From the IMG/VR virus record IMGVR_UViG_2778261033_000015: a stretch of DNA of 39,669 nucleotides; one strand, written 5' to 3'. Position 1 is the first letter of the stretch; every line of letters begins with the position of its first letter. This DNA comes from a virus. Taxonomy: Duplodnaviria; Heunggongvirae; Uroviricota; Caudoviricetes. Under the pieces are notes generated by a model. It ran no database searches, was not told where the DNA came from, and worked only from the letters and a program-made list of their open reading frames with translations. The position numbers were made by a program, and so were the translations under genes. Positions 2,403-31,646 of this stretch are shown here, in pieces.

Positions 2403-2548
2403 ATAACCTTACCTTTGATATTGACTACATAATTCGTTATCGGGTAAAAACATCGAAGCGACTGATAACCACTCCTTCGGGAGTATTTTTATTTTCCTTT
2501 ATGGGTTAGGTAGCTCCCGCCAGCCATATCATGACCGGCGGGATTTTT

Positions 2549-4588
2549 TTATTCTGTTACCGCTTTTTTCACTTCCACCACAATGCTGTCAATCAGCACC
2601 GGGTAAGTTGCATTTTTTGTGATATCCGTTACGCGGAGTTTGTCCACCGGGAAAGTTCCTACTGGTGACTGCGTCAGGGTAAACGCGGCACCATCCTGAC
2701 CATCAATAACCGGAATAACCTGAAGGCTGTTATTTCCTGCAAAACGGAAGGCCAGCGTATGCCATTCATTATCAAATGCACCAAAGGTTCCCAGTTTCTG
2801 GTTATTTGTTGCCACTTTTGCATTGTGGTACATCACATTCAGGTCTTTTGCGTCTGTCTGGATGTAGAACGATGCCAGCAGATTATTCCCTGCATCCCCT
2901 GTCAGGGTGACACCCTGCGGCAGAGAGGAAACCGGCCAGTAAAGCCCCATGACATACTGGTTTGCCACCAGGTCGCCAGGTACTTTAAAACGACAACTGA
3001 TTAAACCACCATTTTTCAGCAGTTCAGCACCAGTACCGGCATCATGATCCAGATACCAAGATGATTTACCTGTTTCCTTGGTCAGTTTCATTGCCTTACC
3101 ACCTGTGCCTCCTGCATCACTGATAATTTCAGCTTTACCGCCAGCCGGCTCCCAGCCCTGGGCTTTCAGATTTCCTTCTGACTCACTGACACGATAAGAC
3201 AGCAGTGTTGTGGTTACTGCTTCAGTTTCTGAAGGTGACGGCACTGGTGCTTCAGTTTCAGAAGATGGAACATCGGCTTTTACTGTGGTTCGCCCCGCAT
3301 GAGTCAGAACTGCCGTGGCCAGACGGTCGGAAATAATCCCACGACGTGCCCATGAACTGAAATGGCTGGCCCGGTCCGCAGATGTCCAGGTGGCGGCACT
3401 GTTACGCCACGTTGAGCCGTAATAACCAATGGATTCAATATCCGGGTCTTCTGCCGGATTGTTGGTGGGTACATTCGCGTCATTTTCATCTGTCATTAAT
3501 GGAACGAAATGAATGTTTTTATCTGTTTTGTTTTTGTAGCCGCCATAGATTGCCTGGTATGCCGGTTCATTTTTCTGTTTCCAGAAATACGTGGTATCGC
3601 CACAAATCCACGGAACGCCAGCAGCACTGCCACCGGTACACTGTTCCGCCTGTTCAGCCAGGTCTGCGCGGAATTTTTCCACCATCGCCAGAAACAGCGC
3701 GGAATGCTCCGTCGGCTTCGCATCAATATCAAACTCGCCCTGCATCCACACCACAGCAAGCAGGCGGTTTTTCGGGTTCTTCGCCAGTGCCGCTTTTGTC
3801 CGGCTGATTAAGTCCTTATACAGCGGCTTATCCACACCCCAGCGGGCTGAGTCCTCTGAAGCACCCGTGCTGTCACTGTACGTGCCGTCAGCACCCGCCG
3901 TGAATGCAGAACCACCACGGCAGCAGGGAACCAGCAGAATCCCCGCATCTGCCGGAATAAACGGCAGCAGTTTTTTGGCAATGTGAAGCCCCTGACCCAC
4001 GGTGCCATATTGCCCTTTAGCCACATCCGCTTTCGGGTGATTTTTTCCACTCATATCCTGCACATCATGCAGACAGTGGTCGGCCAGAATGATGTCGTTA
4101 TACTGACAGGCTTTACCTCCCGGCGTGACTGTACTGCGACGGGCTAACTGCATAATACGCGGTTCGGGGCGGTCATATGTCTCCGGCAGTGGCAGACCTT
4201 CACCGTAAGCCATACCGTTTGACTGACCAGCAAGAACCACCACGTAATACCAGGAAGGGGAGCTGGAAGCAGTTTCATTTCCTGACGGACGGGTATGTGT
4301 TTCAGCATTATCCCAGTCTGACGGTTCAGCAGTACCGGCAACATCAGCACTTAACGGAATGACCGCACCAATACCCGCTCCGGTAATTTCCACACTCGGA
4401 TCACCGGATACTGGCCTTACCCACAGGCAATCCCGTGTATTAAAACTGATGAGACAGTCAGCAAATGTCATTCCTCCTTTTGTTTCGGCCGGAGGAAAGG
4501 GAGCCTCAAGAAATGCCGCTGTACCACCGGAAACTTTAACAGTAAAGTTTCCGGGCATTGATGATAGTTGAACCCATTTGGACGTCAT
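2549..4588 (-). CDS. SASA/SGNH-family carbohydrate O-acetylesterase with C-terminal lectin-like domain (prophage cargo; resembles NanS-p type sialate O-acetylesterases)
   Basis: 679-aa ORF with GQSNGM (catalytic Ser block), WMQGEFD (SASA block II) and a ~220-aa beta-rich C-terminal region (...NEWHTLAFRF...). Sits between gin and com/mom, where Mu has no gene. Confidence 0.75.
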   Translation of the reverse strand: MTSKWVQLSSMPGNFTVKVSGGTAAFLEAPFPPAETKGGMTFADCLISFNTRDCLWVRPVSGDPSVEITGAGIGAVIPLSADVAGTAEPSDWDNAETHTRPSGNETASSSPSWYYVVVLAGQSNGMAYGEGLPLPETYDRPEPRIMQLARRSTVTPGGKACQYNDIILADHCLHDVQDMSGKNHPKADVAKGQYGTVGQGLHIAKKLLPFIPADAGILLVPCCRGGSAFTAGADGTYSDSTGASEDSARWGVDKPLYKDLISRTKAALAKNPKNRLLAVVWMQGEFDIDAKPTEHSALFLAMVEKFRADLAEQAEQCTGGSAAGVPWICGDTTYFWKQKNEPAYQAIYGGYKNKTDKNIHFVPLMTDENDANVPTNNPAEDPDIESIGYYGSTWRNSAATWTSADRASHFSSWARRGIISDRLATAVLTHAGRTTVKADVPSSETEAPVPSPSETEAVTTTLLSYRVSESEGNLKAQGWEPAGGKAEIISDAGGTGGKAMKLTKETGKSSWYLDHDAGTGAELLKNGGLISCRFKVPGDLVANQYVMGLYWPVSSLPQGVTLTGDAGNNLLASFYIQTDAKDLNVMYHNAKVATNNQKLGTFGAFDNEWHTLAFRFAGNNSLQVIPVIDGQDGAAFTLTQSPVGTFPVDKLRVTDITKNATYPVLIDSIVVEVKKAVTE

Positions 4589-8856: not shown

Positions 8857-9290
8857 TCCCCCTTCATATCAGCATAAAAAATCATCGGATGTCTGCTTCC
8901 GTCCGGCAGGGTGATTTTCACGGAAAGCGAAAGGCGAGCATGCCCCACACGCATGGCATGACATACCACGGATGTGGCAGCACCGCTTTTATGCAGCCAC
9001 GCCAGCGCTTCATCAGCATAGGCCTGTGCACGGCTGACCACGGAGGACAGCGTCTTTTCACGGCTTAACAGCCAGAGACGGGAGCCAACGGGGCGCTCCC
9101 GGAAACTGTCTCCCCACCATCCCCGACGGTCACGGGTGCCGTCAGGGATTTCATCGGAATCCAGCGCCCGCCTGTCCGTAAACAGTGAAATAATGACCGC
9201 AGTCAGCAGGCTGTTATCCGTCAGAAGATCTGCGCCGTTCAGTTGCAGGGAACCGCAACCCTGATCCCAGACGACAGCAATATCAGCCAT
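8853..9290 (-). CDS. Baseplate protein (Mu gp46-like)
   Basis: Start set at internal Met (MADIAVVWDQGCGSLQL...), giving an 8-nt overlap with the upstream gene; the longer ORF to 9503 overlaps gp45 by ~220 nt. Confidence 0.65.
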   Translation of the reverse strand: MADIAVVWDQGCGSLQLNGADLLTDNSLLTAVIISLFTDRRALDSDEIPDGTRDRRGWWGDSFRERPVGSRLWLLSREKTLSSVVSRAQAYADEALAWLHKSGAATSVVCHAMRVGHARLSLSVKITLPDGSRHPMIFYADMKGE

Positions 9291-9897: not shown

Positions 9898-11011
9898 TGA
9901 ATTTAATCCCCTGTTTTTTCATCTGTGCCCGCACGAAGGCGTCCACGTCACCCGCATTTCCGCTTCCGCTGTTTCCCGGCTCTGCCGGAACAATAAAGCC
10001 GTCACGGGGTGCCAGAATCAGACGGGTGGTTTCGCCGTGATTTGCATCCAGCGAAAACTCCACCTGACAGACAAGAAGATCACGCTCTTCCACTCCGGTG
10101 CGGGGAGCCGTGACAGCCGTCAGCAGGTTGATATCCCACAACTGGCCGTTCTCCCGAAACCAGTGCCGCACGGTGGCTGTCAGGCGCACAGAGCGGGCAA
10201 CCGCCCGGCGCATTTCCCGGACAGCCCTCTGGCGTGCACCGTCTGCATCAACAGCATGATCCGCCAGCACAATTTTCGGTCTGTAACGGTGGATGGCACT
10301 GTCTGTCACCGTACCAACGGGTGCGGCCAGCGTTCCGGCTGTCAGTGCATCCCCGGCATGACCACCACCACGCCCGTGCCCCCGTACACGGTATTCACTG
10401 TGGCGCAGACGGTGATCCACGTTGTGATCCAAATCCAGCAGATTTTCGCCCAGCGTCAGCGTGTCGCCACGCTGACTGCCGGCCTGAGTGAAAACCAGTT
10501 CACCGGCGGCATTACTGGTTACCAGGACGCCTCTGTGTCTCGCGGCCCGTGTCAGCGCATCTGCCACGGTTTCTGAGTTTTCCAGTGTGAAGGTGGAAAA
10601 GGGCCGGGCTGCCGTTGCATCATTTACCTGCCAGCGCACCGTGACCCCGAACGGAGCACACAAATCTGAAGCAATGTGCTCCAGCGTGCGGTTCCTCCAC
10701 TGGCTGCCCGGATGAATGGCTGAACAGTCCACCAGGTCACCGGTTTTATCCCGTCCGCTGAGCGTGATCTGAAAACGCGTGGCGCTGATGCGCTGCCGGA
10801 CCTGATCCAGCCAGCCAGTGATCACAGGCTGACCGTCAATGCGCAATTCCAGAGACTGACCGGCACGGACGGATGACGGAAGGCGTACACCGGGCATCAT
10901 TACCCCCAGTTCAAAGGAGCCCGCCAGATGTTCAAGAGAGCGACGAACACTCACCGTCAGCCAGCCGGAAAAAATCTCACCGCCCAGATACAGTTCAACC
11001 CTGCTGCTCAC
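9887..11011 (-). CDS. Baseplate hub / tail protein (Mu gp44, P2 gpD-like)
   Basis: 374-aa ORF between the gp43-like and gpV-like genes. Confidence 0.7.
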   Translation of the reverse strand: MSSRVELYLGGEIFSGWLTVSVRRSLEHLAGSFELGVMMPGVRLPSSVRAGQSLELRIDGQPVITGWLDQVRQRISATRFQITLSGRDKTGDLVDCSAIHPGSQWRNRTLEHIASDLCAPFGVTVRWQVNDATAARPFSTFTLENSETVADALTRAARHRGVLVTSNAAGELVFTQAGSQRGDTLTLGENLLDLDHNVDHRLRHSEYRVRGHGRGGGHAGDALTAGTLAAPVGTVTDSAIHRYRPKIVLADHAVDADGARQRAVREMRRAVARSVRLTATVRHWFRENGQLWDINLLTAVTAPRTGVEERDLLVCQVEFSLDANHGETTRLILAPRDGFIVPAEPGNSGSGNAGDVDAFVRAQMKKQGIKFNDE

Positions 11012-20623: not shown

Positions 20624-20799
20624 TCCGGCAGCATAAGCCGGGAATTTTCAGGGCGGGTTTTGCGGGATTTCAGGAAGTGCTTCCAGGGGAAAAATACAAA
20701 GGCGCTTCACGCAGATTTTAAAGCCCGTTAAATACAGGTTAGAAAATCACGACACGCGCCTGAAGGGGGTAAGGTAATGCATTTGCATACCTTAAACAA
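20624..20799 (-). promoter_or_regulatory. Intergenic region upstream of I-like gene; candidate late promoter
   Basis: 176-bp non-coding gap in an otherwise tightly packed late region, at the position of Mu's I-gene late promoter. No motif verified. Confidence 0.25.
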
Positions 20800-27359: not shown

Positions 27360-27731
27360 TTACTTCGTTTTTCCTGCCGGAACAGCAGGCGTTCCGGCCA
27401 TATCAGTAAATTCATGTTGTCGCCGCGTCTCCAGACGACGAATACTGGCCTTGTCCACGTTGCAGTTCTTGATCACCGCCAGCAGTTGCAGGTTGTAAGT
27501 GACCGATGCCCCAAACGTGAACGGCTCCGGCGCAGGAGGGACTAGGCAGTCAGCCAGCCATTCAGCGGGGATCGGCACCGGCTTCACAGGCACGTATTTC
27601 ACAGACGGCCCGGCGCACCCGATCAGCCACATCATCAGGAACAGGGGCAGAGGCCGCAGGCACTGCTGCCAGCGACCGGCGGACAACGCTCTGCTGCCCC
27701 TCGCTGTGCTGAATGTTCTGTTGTTTTTCAT
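27360..27731 (-). CDS. Putative o-spanin (Rz1-like lipoprotein), embedded/overlapping
   Basis: Frame contains lipobox-like LIGC after a hydrophobic run, followed by Pro-rich PVKPVPIP; overlaps the i-spanin candidate out of frame. Start uncertain. Confidence 0.45.
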   Translation of the reverse strand: MKNNRTFSTARGSRALSAGRWQQCLRPLPLFLMMWLIGCAGPSVKYVPVKPVPIPAEWLADCLVPPAPEPFTFGASVTYNLQLLAVIKNCNVDKASIRRLETRRQHEFTDMAGTPAVPAGKTK

Positions 27732-27912
27732 TCGTGGCCGCCTCACTGATTTGTGAAATGAGTTGCAGGGTGTGCTGCTGATTTGCCAGCACCTGACGCG
27801 CCTCATCCCGCTCACGCACAAGCACCTGATTATTGTCTTCAAGGCGCTGCGTCTTCTGGTGCATTCCCCATATCGCGGCAACCAGTACAGCGATAATCCC
27901 CAGCGCCGCCAT
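27562..27912 (-). CDS. Putative i-spanin (Rz-like)
   Basis: N-terminal TM (MAALGIIAVLVAAIWGM) then coiled-coil-like region; downstream of endolysin. Start ambiguous (ATG 27912 or GTG 27951). Confidence 0.5.
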   Translation of the reverse strand: MAALGIIAVLVAAIWGMHQKTQRLEDNNQVLVRERDEARQVLANQQHTLQLISQISEAATNEKQQNIQHSEGQQSVVRRSLAAVPAASAPVPDDVADRVRRAVCEIRACEAGADPR

Positions 27913-28024
27913 GCACGCCCCGGCAATCAGGGCCGGTAAGGCATTATTCACCGCAGCCACAGGACACCCCGTAACAGCAGTACCGCACACAGCAGCGCTA
28001 TCATGATCGGTCGCCAGAAGCGGT

Positions 28025-28525
28025 TCAGACTTTCGGCAAATCGTAGCGACATAACCATTCATCCGCCGAACGGCGGGCCTCAAGGCCGGGGAGCTTCACC
28101 CCCTTTGAATAAATCCAGCGGATATACTGCTTACAGGACGCGGGCATCTGCCCGGCATTGATCAGGCGCAGAAGCGTGGAGTTGCGAAAGTTCGTTTCAC
28201 CGGCCCAGAAGATCCACGAAGCCAGCGCCACCGTCTGACCACGGGTAAGCGGCACCTGAACACGCCGATCAATGGCCGCAAAGGCCCATTTCATGTCCTT
28301 TTCCAGTAGTTCCAGGCATTCTTCATCCGTCAGGGTCATACCCGGTTTCACATCCGGGCCGGTATGGCCGTAACAGATGGTGGGTGTACCGGTGGGATCG
28401 ATATACGTGGAGTTTTCTTTCCCTTCCCAGTAACCGGTGTAATGCGTGGCAATCGTGAACGTCCCGGCACCGGCCAGAACAAGGGCAATCAGCTTTTTAC
28501 GCAGTGGTGCGGGGAGTTTTGGCAT
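28025..28525 (-). CDS. lys: Endolysin, phage lysozyme-type muramidase, probable SAR N-terminus
   Basis: 166 aa; Gly/Ala-rich weakly hydrophobic N-terminus (LVLAGAGTFTIAT) followed by YWEGKE...YIDPTG.PTICYGHTG, the lysozyme catalytic region. Confidence 0.85.
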   Translation of the reverse strand: MPKLPAPLRKKLIALVLAGAGTFTIATHYTGYWEGKENSTYIDPTGTPTICYGHTGPDVKPGMTLTDEECLELLEKDMKWAFAAIDRRVQVPLTRGQTVALASWIFWAGETNFRNSTLLRLINAGQMPASCKQYIRWIYSKGVKLPGLEARRSADEWLCRYDLPKV

Positions 28526-28526
28526 T

Positions 28527-28564
28527 GTTACGCTGTCTCATGATGTTCTCTGAGTCAGCGTAAC
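28527..28564 (-). promoter_or_regulatory. Inverted repeat in the lys leader (possible regulatory site)
   Basis: GTTACGCTG-N20-CAGCGTAAC, ending 1 nt before the lys start codon. Confidence 0.25.
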
Positions 28565-28596
28565 GGTGAAGGAAAGGCGGCAGGCTTTGCGGAATA

Positions 28597-29022
28597 TCAG
28601 AAAAGTGGCGGTTGTGTTCTTGCCAGATGCAGACGGCGCTGTTCACGTATGACGGTATAAATCTGGGTTTCTGACATCCGGTAATGGCGGCGAAGGGATT
28701 CAATTTTCTCGCCCCGGTCCCAGCGCGAAAATATCTCATTGTTTCGCAGCTCGGCAAAGAGAGATTCCCCGACCGGCAGGTAATAACCCCGTCCGCCCAT
28801 ATAGGCTGCCTGAGCCGCAGCCACCTTGCGTGCCAGTTTGCCGGCCAGTACCGGCTCAATCCCCTGACGCTGAAGTTCTGCGCCGGTGACTTCAACCAGT
28901 TCTGACAGGGTCCGCGGCCAGTTCTTTTTGAGAACATCATCAGGGATGTCATCAAGGCGGTCGATAAGGGCGTGCAGTTGCTCACTGTCACCACCAAACA
29001 TGCTCATCTGAGTTTCTGCCAT
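28597..29022 (-). CDS. Mor/C-family transcriptional activator (middle/late gene activator)
   Basis: 141 aa; C-terminal ...LRRHYRMSETQIYTVIREQRRLHLARTQPPLF matches the Mor/C HTH tail; the only family member seen in the window. Confidence 0.8.
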   Translation of the reverse strand: MAETQMSMFGGDSEQLHALIDRLDDIPDDVLKKNWPRTLSELVEVTGAELQRQGIEPVLAGKLARKVAAAQAAYMGGRGYYLPVGESLFAELRNNEIFSRWDRGEKIESLRRHYRMSETQIYTVIREQRRLHLARTQPPLF

Positions 29023-29063
29023 ATCAGCCTCCGGTTCTCGCGTTCCCGGTAAGTTTAAAATAA

Positions 29064-29087
29064 AAATCCCGCGTTGTGGCGGGATTT
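29064..29087 (-). terminator. Intrinsic terminator at end of early operon
   Basis: Perfect 9-bp stem AAATCCCGC/GCGGGATTT with 6-nt loop; on the minus strand followed by TTATTTTAAA; 5 bp downstream of the gemA-like stop. Confidence 0.55.
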
Positions 29088-29091
29088 GGGG

Positions 29092-29601
29092 TTAACGGGG
29101 AAGTGATTTTTCATACTGCCTGCAAACGGCGTCATACCCCATCAGCGTGCGTTCGGGCATTCCCATCGCGGCCAGCATTTTGCGGCGGTGCCATCGCTTG
29201 AGACGCTCCAGCACATCTGAGGCCAGGGCGGGGTGTTGCTCCAGCCACTGCCAGTTTGCCACACCTTCGCCGCCGTTTTGCGCGGCCGTCTGCGATTTCA
29301 CCCAGCGGTTAAGGGCGGTTTCCGCACCATCAGAGATAAAGCCCTGCCGGTGCATCACCTTCCAGATGGCGCGAATTTTAGCGGTCACCGTACCCGGTTT
29401 TAAGGCCCGGTTAACCGGGTTCTGACGCACTTTAAAACCGCGTTTTTTGAAAACATCCAGCACGCGGGATAACTCATCCGGTGACATATCCCGGCAGCTG
29501 GTTTTGCCGGTGACCGCCAGTAGTACGGATGTGTAGGTTTCATCATCCAGGGCAAGCTCGCGTTTTGCCACATGAATGGCAGATATCAGTTTCCCTCTCA
29601 T
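29092..29601 (-). CDS. GemA-like early protein (Mu gp16 family)
   Basis: 169 aa; N-terminus ...LISAIHVAKRELALDDETYTSVLLAVTGKTSC... as recalled for the Mu gemA family; last gene before the terminator. Confidence 0.55.
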   Translation of the reverse strand: MRGKLISAIHVAKRELALDDETYTSVLLAVTGKTSCRDMSPDELSRVLDVFKKRGFKVRQNPVNRALKPGTVTAKIRAIWKVMHRQGFISDGAETALNRWVKSQTAAQNGGEGVANWQWLEQHPALASDVLERLKRWHRRKMLAAMGMPERTLMGYDAVCRQYEKSLPR

Positions 29602-29894
29602 GCTGTATCAACACTCCTGCGGATATGATAGGTATTATTTTCCCGATCGAGCTGAACCCGATACTCCGGAGGAATCACAAAAATATTAAAACCATCATCA
29701 GTTTTTATTCTTGAGTAGCATTCCCCCTTATGATATCTGGCCAGTGCATTAATCAGAGAAGTCGCAGCCTGCCCAATCAGGTATTTTTTATGAAAAATAC
29801 TGATAACTTTCCGGCACAGCCATCGTGTAATGACGAATGCACCGAAAAAGGATGTGATATATAAATACCAGAACAACTGCGAACTACTGTCCAT
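29598..29894 (-). CDS. Hypothetical early membrane protein
   Basis: 98 aa, N-terminal TM (LFWYLYITSFFGAFVIT); lies in a locally AT-rich stretch. Confidence 0.5.
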   Translation of the reverse strand: MDSSSQLFWYLYITSFFGAFVITRWLCRKVISIFHKKYLIGQAATSLINALARYHKGECYSRIKTDDGFNIFVIPPEYRVQLDRENNTYHIRRSVDTA

Positions 29895-30081
29895 TATCTT
29901 TCTCCTTATTCAGTCTTCTGCGGCATTCGGCACAGTCATCAGGGCTTTCAAATGTATCCGGCTCGCGATTATGAGCCAGATATAACCACCGTCCACATAT
30001 ACTGATATTTTCGCCTGTTTTAAAAAAATGATGCTTCCTGGCCATTAGTGGCCGCGCCCATCCAGCGGGTAGACTATTCAT
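29884..30081 (-). CDS. Hypothetical small Cys-containing protein
   Basis: 65-aa ORF in early operon orientation with Cys pairs (CGRW...CAEC). Confidence 0.4.
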   Translation of the reverse strand: MNSLPAGWARPLMARKHHFFKTGENISICGRWLYLAHNREPDTFESPDDCAECRRRLNKEKDNGQ

Positions 30082-30409
30082 TTGCTTTATCCTCCATGCT
30101 GGACAGAATCATATGTATTAATGTCGGGCGTGGAGATATACGCATTTCATTAAGCGTCTGAAGGGCAGCAACAGCTGCCTGTTTATCGGTGCCTTTGGCA
30201 ATTTCAGCAAGAGAATGCACAATCCATAATGGGCTTAACGCTACGGCTGAATGCAGAATCATGTCATCCATAATAATTTCTGGCATATCCCGTTTGTCAC
30301 ATTCTTTATCCATAAAAGAAACGATTTTTTCTGCATCTTCCGGTTTCATGCCTCCGGCGATGAGAATTTTACGATATTCATAAGACGATCTTAATTCAAT
30401 ACTCATCAT
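30074..30409 (-). CDS. Hypothetical early protein
   Basis: 111-aa ORF, early-operon orientation, coupled to neighbours; no recognisable motif. Confidence 0.5.
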   Translation of the reverse strand: MMSIELRSSYEYRKILIAGGMKPEDAEKIVSFMDKECDKRDMPEIIMDDMILHSAVALSPLWIVHSLAEIAKGTDKQAAVAALQTLNEMRISPRPTLIHMILSSMEDKANE

Positions 30410-30421
30410 TCACCTGCCTGT

Positions 30422-30814
30422 TTAATCAGTTTCCAGTGCTTTGCTACGGGCAACAGCCTCACACTCAAAAAATACCGACTCCGGCACACGCTCCTTTAAT
30501 TCACGAACAAGAAAATCATTAACGAGTTCATGACGTCTTATATTTCTTTCCTTTTCCTCCTGGCGCAATACAGCAAGGCGGTATTCAACAGTCCGGCGTT
30601 GTTTCTGAAAGACAGCTAGTGCTTTTCTGGCAGAGTTACGCAATGTATCATCGCCACAGGGTTCGTATTCAAGCTGAAATTTAATCTCTTCAATGGTTTC
30701 TTTTATTTTTGCCAGCAAGCTAAGACAGTCGCTGATTGTCTTCAGTTTTTCATTATCAATATAACTTCTCACGCATTCACCTCCCGTCATTCCGGTAAAG
30801 CTGAAATATGGCAC
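30422..30814 (-). CDS. Hypothetical early protein
   Basis: 130-aa ORF, helical/charged; no recognisable motif. Confidence 0.5.
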   Translation of the reverse strand: MPYFSFTGMTGGECVRSYIDNEKLKTISDCLSLLAKIKETIEEIKFQLEYEPCGDDTLRNSARKALAVFQKQRRTVEYRLAVLRQEEKERNIRRHELVNDFLVRELKERVPESVFFECEAVARSKALETD

Positions 30815-31098
30815 CAGTGCGTCACCTGTCCGTCCTCATCTTCAAGGCAGGCTCCGGTTTCTTCATCAATAAAAAAGCCTTCATACCCCATATGGCCGAT
30901 GCGCAGTTCCTGTTGGTCACCATACTGAACAATCAGCACGACAGCCTCCATATCAGGCGGGAAAGCATCATTCAGTGAATGCCAGGGATAACCGCGCAAA
31001 TCCCCGAAATAAACACCGGTCAGCGTTCCGCCACAGACCGGCATTCCGACGGCACACACAAGGGGTTCATCTGATTCAACAAATAATGTCGTTATCAT
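30787..31098 (-). CDS. Hypothetical early protein
   Basis: 103-aa acidic ORF overlapping neighbours. Confidence 0.5.
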   Translation of the reverse strand: MITTLFVESDEPLVCAVGMPVCGGTLTGVYFGDLRGYPWHSLNDAFPPDMEAVVLIVQYGDQQELRIGHMGYEGFFIDEETGACLEDEDGQVTHWCHISALPE

Positions 31099-31646
31099 GG
31101 CATTAATTCCCGTAATACAACATCTTCGGCAGTCCGACGACGGTGATAAATAAAACTCACCGTGCCCTCGGATAATTCAAATTTCTCGCCGATTTCCCTA
31201 AAGGTAAGACGCCGTGGTGATTCAGCATCCCGTAATTCACGAATAAGACGAACATCATCGTCAGGTATGCGGGTGAAGGGCAGCAACTCTCCGTATTTTT
31301 TCATGCTTACGCCAATATATCGCGCCCGATTGTGGACAGAATCCCGGTCTCGCCCCAGATATTCTCCTATTTGCTTACCGGTCATTGTTCTGGCATTTTT
31401 TCGGATAAATTTATCTTCATCAGGTTTAAATCTGAGGCGTTTGCATTTGAGCAACTCCGGGTAAGTACCGCGTAATAAAACAATCCGGTTATGTACACCC
31501 CAGAAACTTCTTTTTATCCTGACAGCAATATCCTTAACCGGGGTGGATGGATAAAGCGCAATCAGCAGCGCATCTTCTTCAGGTGTCCATGCGCGAACAT
31601 GAGCGGGTGCACGGCCTTTTCTCCCCATGGGTTGTAATATCATCAT
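31095..31646 (-). CDS. Hypothetical early protein, possible DNA-binding
   Basis: 183 aa; basic, with HTH-like C-terminal segment (LTFREIGEKFELSEGTVSFIYHRRR). Confidence 0.5.
   Translation of the reverse strand: MMILQPMGRKGRAPAHVRAWTPEEDALLIALYPSTPVKDIAVRIKRSFWGVHNRIVLLRGTYPELLKCKRLRFKPDEDKFIRKNARTMTGKQIGEYLGRDRDSVHNRARYIGVSMKKYGELLPFTRIPDDDVRLIRELRDAESPRRLTFREIGEKFELSEGTVSFIYHRRRTAEDVVLRELMP

Follow-up and report, generated by a model that had tools for sequence, protein, structure and literature searches.

How a Mu-like phage with only one late-gene activator could separate early from late transcription, and how it could withhold its endolysin in the meantime, is the question raised by a 39,669-nucleotide stretch of DNA from a tailed phage (Caudoviricetes; IMG/VR record IMGVR_UViG_2778261033_000015), the whole of which is called the window here and numbered from its first letter. 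The Mu-like gene set of the window lies entirely on the minus strand, and a single gene of the Mor/C family of activators stands between a gemA-like gene and lys, the endolysin gene. The explanation judged best, in which confidence is modest and a little above even, is a cascade run by this one activator, whose own promoter (PC) would lie immediately after a terminator, and in which lys would be gated by an RNA hairpin built around its late promoter.

A single C-type activator

The activator gene (28597-29022, minus strand; Shine-Dalgarno (SD) sequence GGAGG at 29032-29028) encodes a protein that matches the Pfam Mor family (PF08765) at E = 2.8e-32 with profile positions 2-107 of 107 covered; aligned with Mu Mor and Mu C, it retains the GG of the beta-linker and other invariant columns. 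In phmmer comparisons it matches Mu C at E 3.3e-29 vs 1.3e-11 for Mu Mor, with identities of 40 % and 29 %, respectively, and its gene adjoins lys, as C does in Mu. By these measures of similarity the protein classes as C-type rather than Mor-type. A role as activator of promoters that lack a -35 element, exerted via a site centered near -43.5, is proposed on the basis of a 22-nt box common to lys and gene I that is described below.

An earlier note on this DNA, made from the sequence alone, had reported a single Mor/C-family gene between the gemA-like gene and lys, and this holds on closer search. When phmmer was run on all six-frame segments of at least 25 aa, with the window protein and both Mu activators (Mor and C) as queries, no second Mor/C homologue was found below E = 0.1 besides the gene itself, and Pfam searches of 20 further open reading frames (ORFs; ner, the repressor gene c, three small ones from the late region, and the 15 that separate gene B from gemA) gave no Mor match at E ≤ 0.1. 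The second, Mor-type paralogue in the early operon that a Mor-then-C cascade of the Mu type calls for is not found in the window.

To place this arrangement, related loci were drawn from one-genome-per-species contigs (15, by alignment query), viral contigs (80), and annotated phages and E. coli genomes (six), and the Mor/C-family ORFs at each locus were counted within 2.5 kb on either side of the activator; the word-indexed protein search retrieved relatives only at ≥ 64 % identity. Exactly one Mor/C-family ORF is present in 80 of the 102 related loci, always nearer to C than to Mor, and these loci, which come from Enterobacterales, Pasteurellaceae and others, include ones from Edwardsiella, Kluyvera, Erwinia, Haemophilus, Pasteurella, Actinobacillus, Shewanella and Pseudoalteromonas. 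Mor and C occur together in the other 22, made up of Mu/D108-type phages and, at a greater distance, one pair (L074, L075); since the same search found Mor in those 22, it detects Mor where Mor is present. As judged from these gene counts, one C-like activator after gemA is the usual arrangement in the Mu-like loci sampled and not a peculiarity of this prophage, so that the "collapsed or rewired" switch suggested in the earlier note describes what is in fact the common state.

With a single C-type activator, timing must come from elsewhere: from terminator leakage, from promoter design, or from the clamp dependence reported for MuC (PMC12867686). MuC needs the replication clamp, via QxxLF-type motifs, for transcription activation (PMC12867686). 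The window protein has two QxxxF motifs, one near its N-terminus (..TQMSMF) and one at its C-terminus (QPPLF), and QMSMF and QPPLF stand at positions matching the beta-clamp-binding motifs QHDLF and QPDLF that are needed for MuC activity (PMC12867686). By analogy, coupling to replication could replace the delay that is supplied by Mor in Mu.

The hairpin after gemA and the activator promoter

The gemA-like gene, last of the early operon (29092-29601, minus strand; Pfam GemA, 2e-30; "gp16 family protein" in RefSeq for a 100 % identical record), is followed by a hairpin and T-run of the intrinsic-terminator type that was located by a terminator scan (29057-29087, minus strand; AAATCCCGC/CACAAC/GCGGGATTT at 29087-29064, then TTATTTT). 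The hairpin has a 9-bp stem with 5 GC pairs, a 6-nt loop and a U-run, folds at -13.5 kcal/mol (z -4.24), and ends 41 nt before the activator ATG (29022); in the scan it is the sole good terminator-like site on the minus strand in 27500-30500. Relatives whose activators are 44-60 % identical have a CCCGC/GCGGG stem with varying loops. The 9-bp GC-rich hairpin with T-run that the earlier note had seen at 29064-29087 is thus corroborated by scan and fold alike; it has the sequence characteristics of an intrinsic terminator and is the predicted end of the early transcript.

The candidate -10 hexamer of PC, TAAACT (29052-29057, minus strand), comes directly after the T-run and aligns with TATACT/TATAAT of relatives; the predicted start of transcription is near 29044-29046. 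Among E. coli variants whose coding sequences are about 15 % different, the segment from the hairpin through TTTTTATTTTAAACTT is invariant bar one loop base, and the next ~20 nt to the SD largely differ. The relatives with 44-60 %-identical activators show the same order of CCCGC/GCGGG hairpin, T-run, TAnAnT hexamer, 28-36 nt, SD and ATG, the hexamer being TATAAT in Edwardsiella and L065 and TATACT in Kluyvera, Erwinia and others, and a conserved -10 hexamer 3' of the T-run is present in every enterobacterial lineage examined. Hairpin and hexamer remain with the activator in L011, L012 and L014 though inserted genes of 0.5-1.3 kb part it from gemA; copies of the hairpin flank an insert on both sides in L004 and L015; and two loci without the hairpin (L013, L069) and one without its 5' arm (L044) all keep T-run and hexamer. 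Conservation of the hexamer while its flanks diverge, and its retention despite inserts or loss of the hairpin, are the signature of a -10 element. The hairpin itself spans about -42 to -19 of PC and thereby covers the -35 region, which holds no acceptable -35 element (GCCACA, 3/6).

These patterns suggest that the activator has its own promoter, with a -10 and without a -35 element, whose start is predicted from the hexamer. The earlier note had seen no room for a conventional promoter after the hairpin and had proposed that the activator is controlled by read-through or antitermination. The first point finds no support in view of the conserved -10 that abuts the T-run and of the parallel with the Mu promoter Pm; by the conserved -10 and the same parallel, the control proposed is not required, though some read-through could occur. 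Pfam scans revealed no antiterminator-like protein among the early ORFs.

The hairpin was also considered as a Mu-type C or Mor site and not adopted as such: placed in the canonical register (-51..-36, GTTAACCCCAAATCCC), it agrees with Mu Pmom at 10/16 positions and with the window Plys at only 2/16. The 8-mer AATCCCGC occurs somewhat often in the window and is present also in an ordinary terminator-like hairpin at 2545-2510, so its count proves nothing. The latter hairpin, a second one of the form AAAAATCCCGCC...GGCGGGAGC (2510-2545, minus strand), follows a 679-aa ORF (2549-4588).

Two further features of this junction were observed in relatives. It is a hot spot of insertion (L004 1980-2830, L015, L044, L045), with inserts of 0.5-1.5 kb; the insert of L004 holds one reverse-strand ORF and one small forward ORF, and the insertion junction of L044 falls in the hairpin loop, immediately 5' of GCCACA. 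In Pasteurellaceae (L019, L021, L103) a sigma-70 promoter close to consensus (TTTACC-17-TATAAT) precedes the activator gene, and an 8-bp inverted repeat (ACAAATTA-C-TAATTTGT in L019) overlaps its TATAAT in the manner of an operator, which suggests control by a repressor rather than by activation.

Predicted late promoters before lys and gene I

The 22-nt box on which the proposed role of the activator is based occurs at two places. In Plys, the predicted promoter of lys, the box CTGATATTCCGCAAAGCCTGCC (28579-28600, minus strand) overlaps the activator stop codon, lies at about -50 to -29, and is identical at 18/22 positions to the gene I box. The predicted Plys -10, TACGCT (28557-28562, minus strand), has the same offset from its box as TATGCT has in the promoter of gene I, and the predicted start is near 28550-28551. 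The latter promoter, an equivalent of Mu PI (20630-20673, minus strand), consists of the box CTGAAATCCCGCAAAACCCGCC at 20673-20652 and the -10 TATGCT at 20635-20630, with 7 nt to the ATG (20623) of protease gene I. Both boxes have TTAYGCTG 15 nt downstream, which provides TAYGCT as -10.

The box has two matches in the window and 0 in 100 shuffles, its consensus having been derived from those two sites. No third late promoter was detected: with ≤ 3 mismatches allowed, the 22-nt box matches just the two source sites in the window, and a spaced-pattern search for further late promoters gave chance-level matches. In 11 other lineages a C-box-like xxAAT/C-CCC stands exactly 28 nt before a TAnnCT hexamer, and it is to these hexamers that the predicted Plys -10 of the window corresponds in position.

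The ATG of gene I, which follows so closely on its -10, is almost without an SD sequence; its position agrees with that of Mu I, as the alignment begins at residue 9 vs residue 6. The gene I mRNA may thus be leaderless.

A hairpin at the lys start that contains the predicted Plys -10

The lys gene (28025-28525, minus strand; Pfam Phage_lysozyme, 6.3e-37), which encodes a lysozyme-family endolysin, is the first gene past the activator. Its start is preceded by a hairpin (28527-28564, minus strand) with an outer stem formed by 28564-28556 and 28535-28527 and an inner stem formed by CTCA (28554-28551) and TGAG (28540-28537). The outer stem is an inverted repeat, GTTACGCTG-N20-CAGCGTAAC, followed by A and then by the ATG at 28525. 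Bare 9-bp repeats with a spacer of 3-30 nt are not rare (20 overlapping matches at ~13 places in the window vs 4.2 in shuffles). The extended lys fold, calculated for RNA from 28580, has a stability of -20.2 kcal/mol (z -4.88) that was attained by 0/200 shuffles, and RNA from 28551, the predicted Plys +1, gives -2.9 kcal/mol (z -0.17). Among 48 gene-start regions in the window the lys start is the most extreme (z -6.48; the next is -2.95 and the median -0.32).

The predicted fold pairs the lys start region: the mean unpaired probability of positions -15..+3 is 0.26 in the long RNA and 0.56 in the RNA from +1. The predicted Plys -10 (28562-28557) sits within the 5' arm of the hairpin (28564-28556). 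With the -10 inside the 5' arm and the predicted start ~7 nt downstream (near 28550), RNA made from Plys would be without the 5' arm. The terminator scan found no terminator-like site between the activator gene (28597) and lys (28525), and activator transcripts should therefore enter lys. No Rfam family matched 28300-29300 at E ≤ 1. In E. coli variants, both substitutions in the hairpin region fall at unpaired positions.

The N20 inverted repeat that the earlier note described as abutting the lys start is indeed there and ends 1 nt before the ATG, and the translational control of lys that it took to be possible stands in part. The repeat is very likely a functional RNA structure that affects lys translation, but it is not a "leader" of the late mRNA, as its 5' arm carries the predicted Plys -10.

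Conservation of the lys hairpin across Mu-like lineages

The lys leaders of 14 Mu-like lineages, which are not fully independent of each other, were compared by per-lineage folds and a cross-lineage re-pairing test. These tests replaced an alignment of the 14 leaders by MAFFT and RNAalifold, in which the window sequence was misaligned and no pairs were predicted. When the -10 is included, the RNA folds across the start of lys with a mean z of -3.19, vs -0.68 for the activator leaders of the same phages (Mann-Whitney p = 5.7e-5), and the unpaired probability of -15..+3 changes from 0.16-0.55 to 0.56-0.73 when the RNA begins at +1. The 5' and 3' segments of one and the same lineage pair with a mean of -12.8 kcal/mol, vs -6.1 for cross-lineage re-pairings (permutation p ≤ 5e-5), and in eight of the 14 lineages the cognate partner outranks the other 13.

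The arm sequences are unrelated between lineages (GTTACGCTG, CTTATCC, TTCTGTCGTTA, ACCCTCCTT, AAACTCCAACTATCAA). The hairpin is CTTATCC-N21-GGATAAG in Kluyvera, TATCC/GGATA with an inner GTTCG/CGAAC stem in Edwardsiella, TTTATC/GATAAA with an inner stem in L057, TTCTGTCGTTA/TAACG(G)ACAGAA in L065, ACCCTGT/ACAG(C)GGT in L054, and ACCCTCCTT/AAGGAGGGT in L074. In Mu, CUGCCAUCA pairs with UGAUGGCGG, covering the lys start codon (-16.7 kcal/mol, z -4.44), and in Pasteurellaceae prophages, whose endolysin carries the annotation of an amidase, the hairpin reads TAAACTCTCTTTAA...TTAAAGAGAGTTT-TTTATG or is a 16-bp variant. The 3' arm always adjoins the start codon in the lineages compared. G.U wobbles occur in several stems; they are pairs in RNA but not in DNA and so point to RNA pairing rather than a DNA site. 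The re-pairing and leader z tests agree that the lys structure is kept by compensatory change, and the hairpin is probably a translational gate, like that of the T4 lysozyme gene e, conserved across Mu-like phages. Beyond the hairpin, the lys genes of the Erwinia type (L014, L064) have a tandem repeat CCCAAAAG(CCCCAAAAG)n right after the ATG that would encode a PKSPKS-type repeat.

A proposed one-activator cascade and its alternatives

From the anatomy of the locus, its folds, their conservation and the lineage-specific complementarity described above, we infer transcript starts, the efficiency of the terminator, the dependence on the activator and the effect on translation as follows. A two-step cascade, early and then late, would be run by one C-type activator. 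The early transcript would end at the hairpin and T-run just past gemA. PC, which is without a -35, would have its -10 TAAACT right after the T-run, with the terminator hairpin filling the place of the -35, and candidates for what switches it on are leaky read-through that primes self-activation, or some early factor. The activator would then turn on the late promoters marked by the 22-nt box and TAYGCT, before lys and gene I. Activator transcripts would run into lys, where the segment that corresponds to the Plys -10 would pair just before the lys AUG and hide the ribosome-binding region; RNAs begun at the Plys start, inside the hairpin, would lack the 5' arm and be translated.

Several points weigh against this account. 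All promoter starts are predictions from hexamers, and PC (GCCACA-17-TAAACT), which agrees with the sigma-70 consensus at only 7/12 positions, was not reported by a promoter scan. In the E. coli lineage the C-box-like ATATT/AAATC stands 35 nt before the late -10 at both Plys and PI, vs 28 nt in all other lineages examined, Mu included, a difference of 7 bp. For the gate, L060, L015 and L067 show weak or differently placed pairing, the incomplete independence of the 14 lineages reduces the force of the comparison, and the Pasteurellaceae hairpin is followed by a U-run and could be a terminator instead of a translational block.

The strength of the terminator, together with the missing -35 and the low score of the candidate promoter, would also fit the reading of the earlier note, in which no promoter lies between hairpin and ATG and activator synthesis depends wholly on early transcripts that pass the hairpin by read-through or antitermination. 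That reading appears unlikely, as the -10 hexamer, unlike its diverging flanks, is conserved in lineages whose activators are 44-60 % identical, as hairpin and hexamer stay with the activator when inserted genes, some on the opposite strand, part it from gemA, as L013 and L069 retain T-run and hexamer without the hairpin, and as the Pfam scans of the early ORFs revealed no antiterminator-like protein. A different possibility, that PC is a late-type promoter recognized by the activator itself, with slight read-through priming a positive feedback that replaces the Mor-to-C relay, is less doubtful and yet stays well short of an even chance. PC has the layout of a late promoter (box, T-tract abutting the -10, no -35); in L010, L057, L065 and L015 the hairpin 5' arm (A/T)AATCCCGC resembles the Plys box xxAATCCC of the same locus, within 0-1 nt in register; and L065, the clearest case, also has CTGACATA upstream in common with its own Plys. 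In the window, AAATCCCGC is identical to the PI box core but its distance from the -10 is 5 bp shorter than the one found in the late promoters, and in the proper register only ~5/22 positions match; being out of register by 5 bp, it leaves self-activation uncertain in this lineage. Moreover, Erwinia-type loci have CCCGTCCCGC and no AT-rich half-site, L013 and L069 are without the motif, L044 has lost the 5' arm, and CCCGC/GCGGG stems are also expected of an ordinary terminator.

At lys, the alternative is that the repeat works as DNA (an operator or a cruciform), or serves as a processing or stability signal, and does not block translation. A protein bound to the repeat would repress, since the repeat overlaps the Plys -10, and the Pasteurellaceae hairpin, with the U-run that comes after it, could terminate upstream transcripts. 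The unrelated arms nevertheless keep their complementarity, including G.U wobbles that are mismatches in DNA; the 3' arm in the window is followed by AAUG and not by a U-run; and in all lineages it is next to the start codon. This alternative is accordingly given a low probability, the lowest of the three considered, and the cascade with a separate PC and a hairpin-gated lys is retained as the account to be compared with known systems.

The prophage

Around the locus, a stretch of 1.8 kb has 98-99 % identity to segments of two Stx phage records that carry the annotation "inserted Bacteriophage Mu-like phage". The 1.3 kb from 28400 to 29700 match at 100 % to prophages of E. coli 97-3250 and of one O157:H7 and one O111:H8 strain, and a search with the same segment found matches in 231/5426 complete E. 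coli genomes. In the RefSeq annotation of an identical copy the Mu-like layout is complete: repressor, ner, transposase A, B, gam, gp16/GemA, a Mor-family protein, lysozyme, spanins, and head and tail genes. The O157 strain Sakai has a Mu-like prophage, Sp18, that was predicted to be intact and that mitomycin does not induce (PMC2669165). By these matches the window appears to be an Sp18-type Mu-like prophage of Shiga-toxigenic E. coli.

An early ORF of 183 aa (31095-31646, minus strand) has weak, sub-threshold matches to helix-turn-helix (HTH) families (Sigma70_r4, 4.5e-5; AsnC-type HTH), and its relatives are annotated variously as DNA-binding, AsnC or SANT/Myb-like. It was rejected as a cryptic relative of Mor (hhalign probability 1.8 %), and only by default is it a candidate regulator of the activator promoter.

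Implications and comparison with known systems

Mu is described as lacking a holin (PMC9239132); if its relatives lack one too, the timing of lysis would depend largely on how much endolysin is supplied. A hairpin that kept lys silent on all transcripts but the Plys RNA would, if real, be a simple gate. It is tentatively proposed, with somewhat less than even confidence, that across Mu-like phages, Mu included, the late lysis promoter is built into an RNA hairpin, with the -10 in the 5' arm and the endolysin start by the 3' arm, so that promoter choice decides endolysin translation; in phages reported to be holin-less this could be a main safeguard against premature lysis, and in single-activator lineages it would be coupled to a PC that is nested in the early terminator and is possibly self-activating. 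The literature searched, which left out older Mu papers, contained no published account of such a lys gate for Mu-like phages. The textbook Mor-then-C relay appears to be the exception, as most of the Mu-like prophages sampled manage with one C-type activator.

Mu is among the closest known systems. Its C protein, like the window activator, has the Mor-family domain, to which the window protein is closer in its C than in its Mor form, and is encoded just upstream of lys. The Mu late promoters (Plys, PI, PP, Pmom) combine a -10 with a box at about -50 to -29 and lack a -35, as do the predicted window promoters, and the positions before lys and gene I are occupied in both phages; the region from about -50 to -29 is the C footprint in Mu (PMC2582627). 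The sequence of the window box differs from the ccATAAcCCCG / TTAT-N5-6-ATAA of Mu. The Mu C gene is served by the Mor-dependent Pm, and the window activator is not, because no Mor is encoded; Mu also has a terminator between C and lys, whereas the window has none.

The deposited annotation of Mu places one predicted terminator (9179-9200) inside Pm (9163-9233) and another (10383-10406) next to Plys. The former, the early terminator after mor, we take to be t9.2. Pm therefore has the layout found in the window, in which a GC-rich hairpin and T-run that end the early genes are overlapped by a -10-only promoter that drives the late activator; in Pm the -10 lies 10 nt past the T-run, whereas in the window it abuts the T-run. 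The Mor element occupies -51 to -36 of Pm (PMC4287176), and positions -57G and -54A of Pm have been described as well (PMC4390567). From these published coordinates (PMC4287176, PMC4390567) we infer that the Mor site of Mu maps to AGTAAAGCCGGTTAAT, which covers the 5' arm and loop of the hairpin.

Among phages with one activator, Pasteurella Pmp9, Shewanella MuM16-1 and Pseudoalteromonas HS6 resemble the window in having a single Mor/C-family gene downstream of gemA. Unlike the window, MuM16-1 and HS6 have the activator gene fused into the early operon without a terminator, and the Pasteurellaceae activator gene has a near-consensus sigma-70 promoter.

For the lys hairpin the closest parallel is the lysozyme gene e of T4, whose ribosome-binding site is sequestered in long early transcripts and whose late promoters lie in the DNA coding for the hairpin's 5' strand (PMC3014915). 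In gene e (and likewise in soc, 49 and I-TevI) a hairpin hides the SD and AUG and the late RNA is without the 5' strand, and the same is predicted for window lys, which also encodes an endolysin. The phage families and the sequences are unrelated, the late promoters depend on gp55 in T4 and would depend on sigma-70 plus a C-type activator in the window, and the window is known from sequence alone. The proposed gate of Mu-like phages seems to have arisen independently of that of T4.

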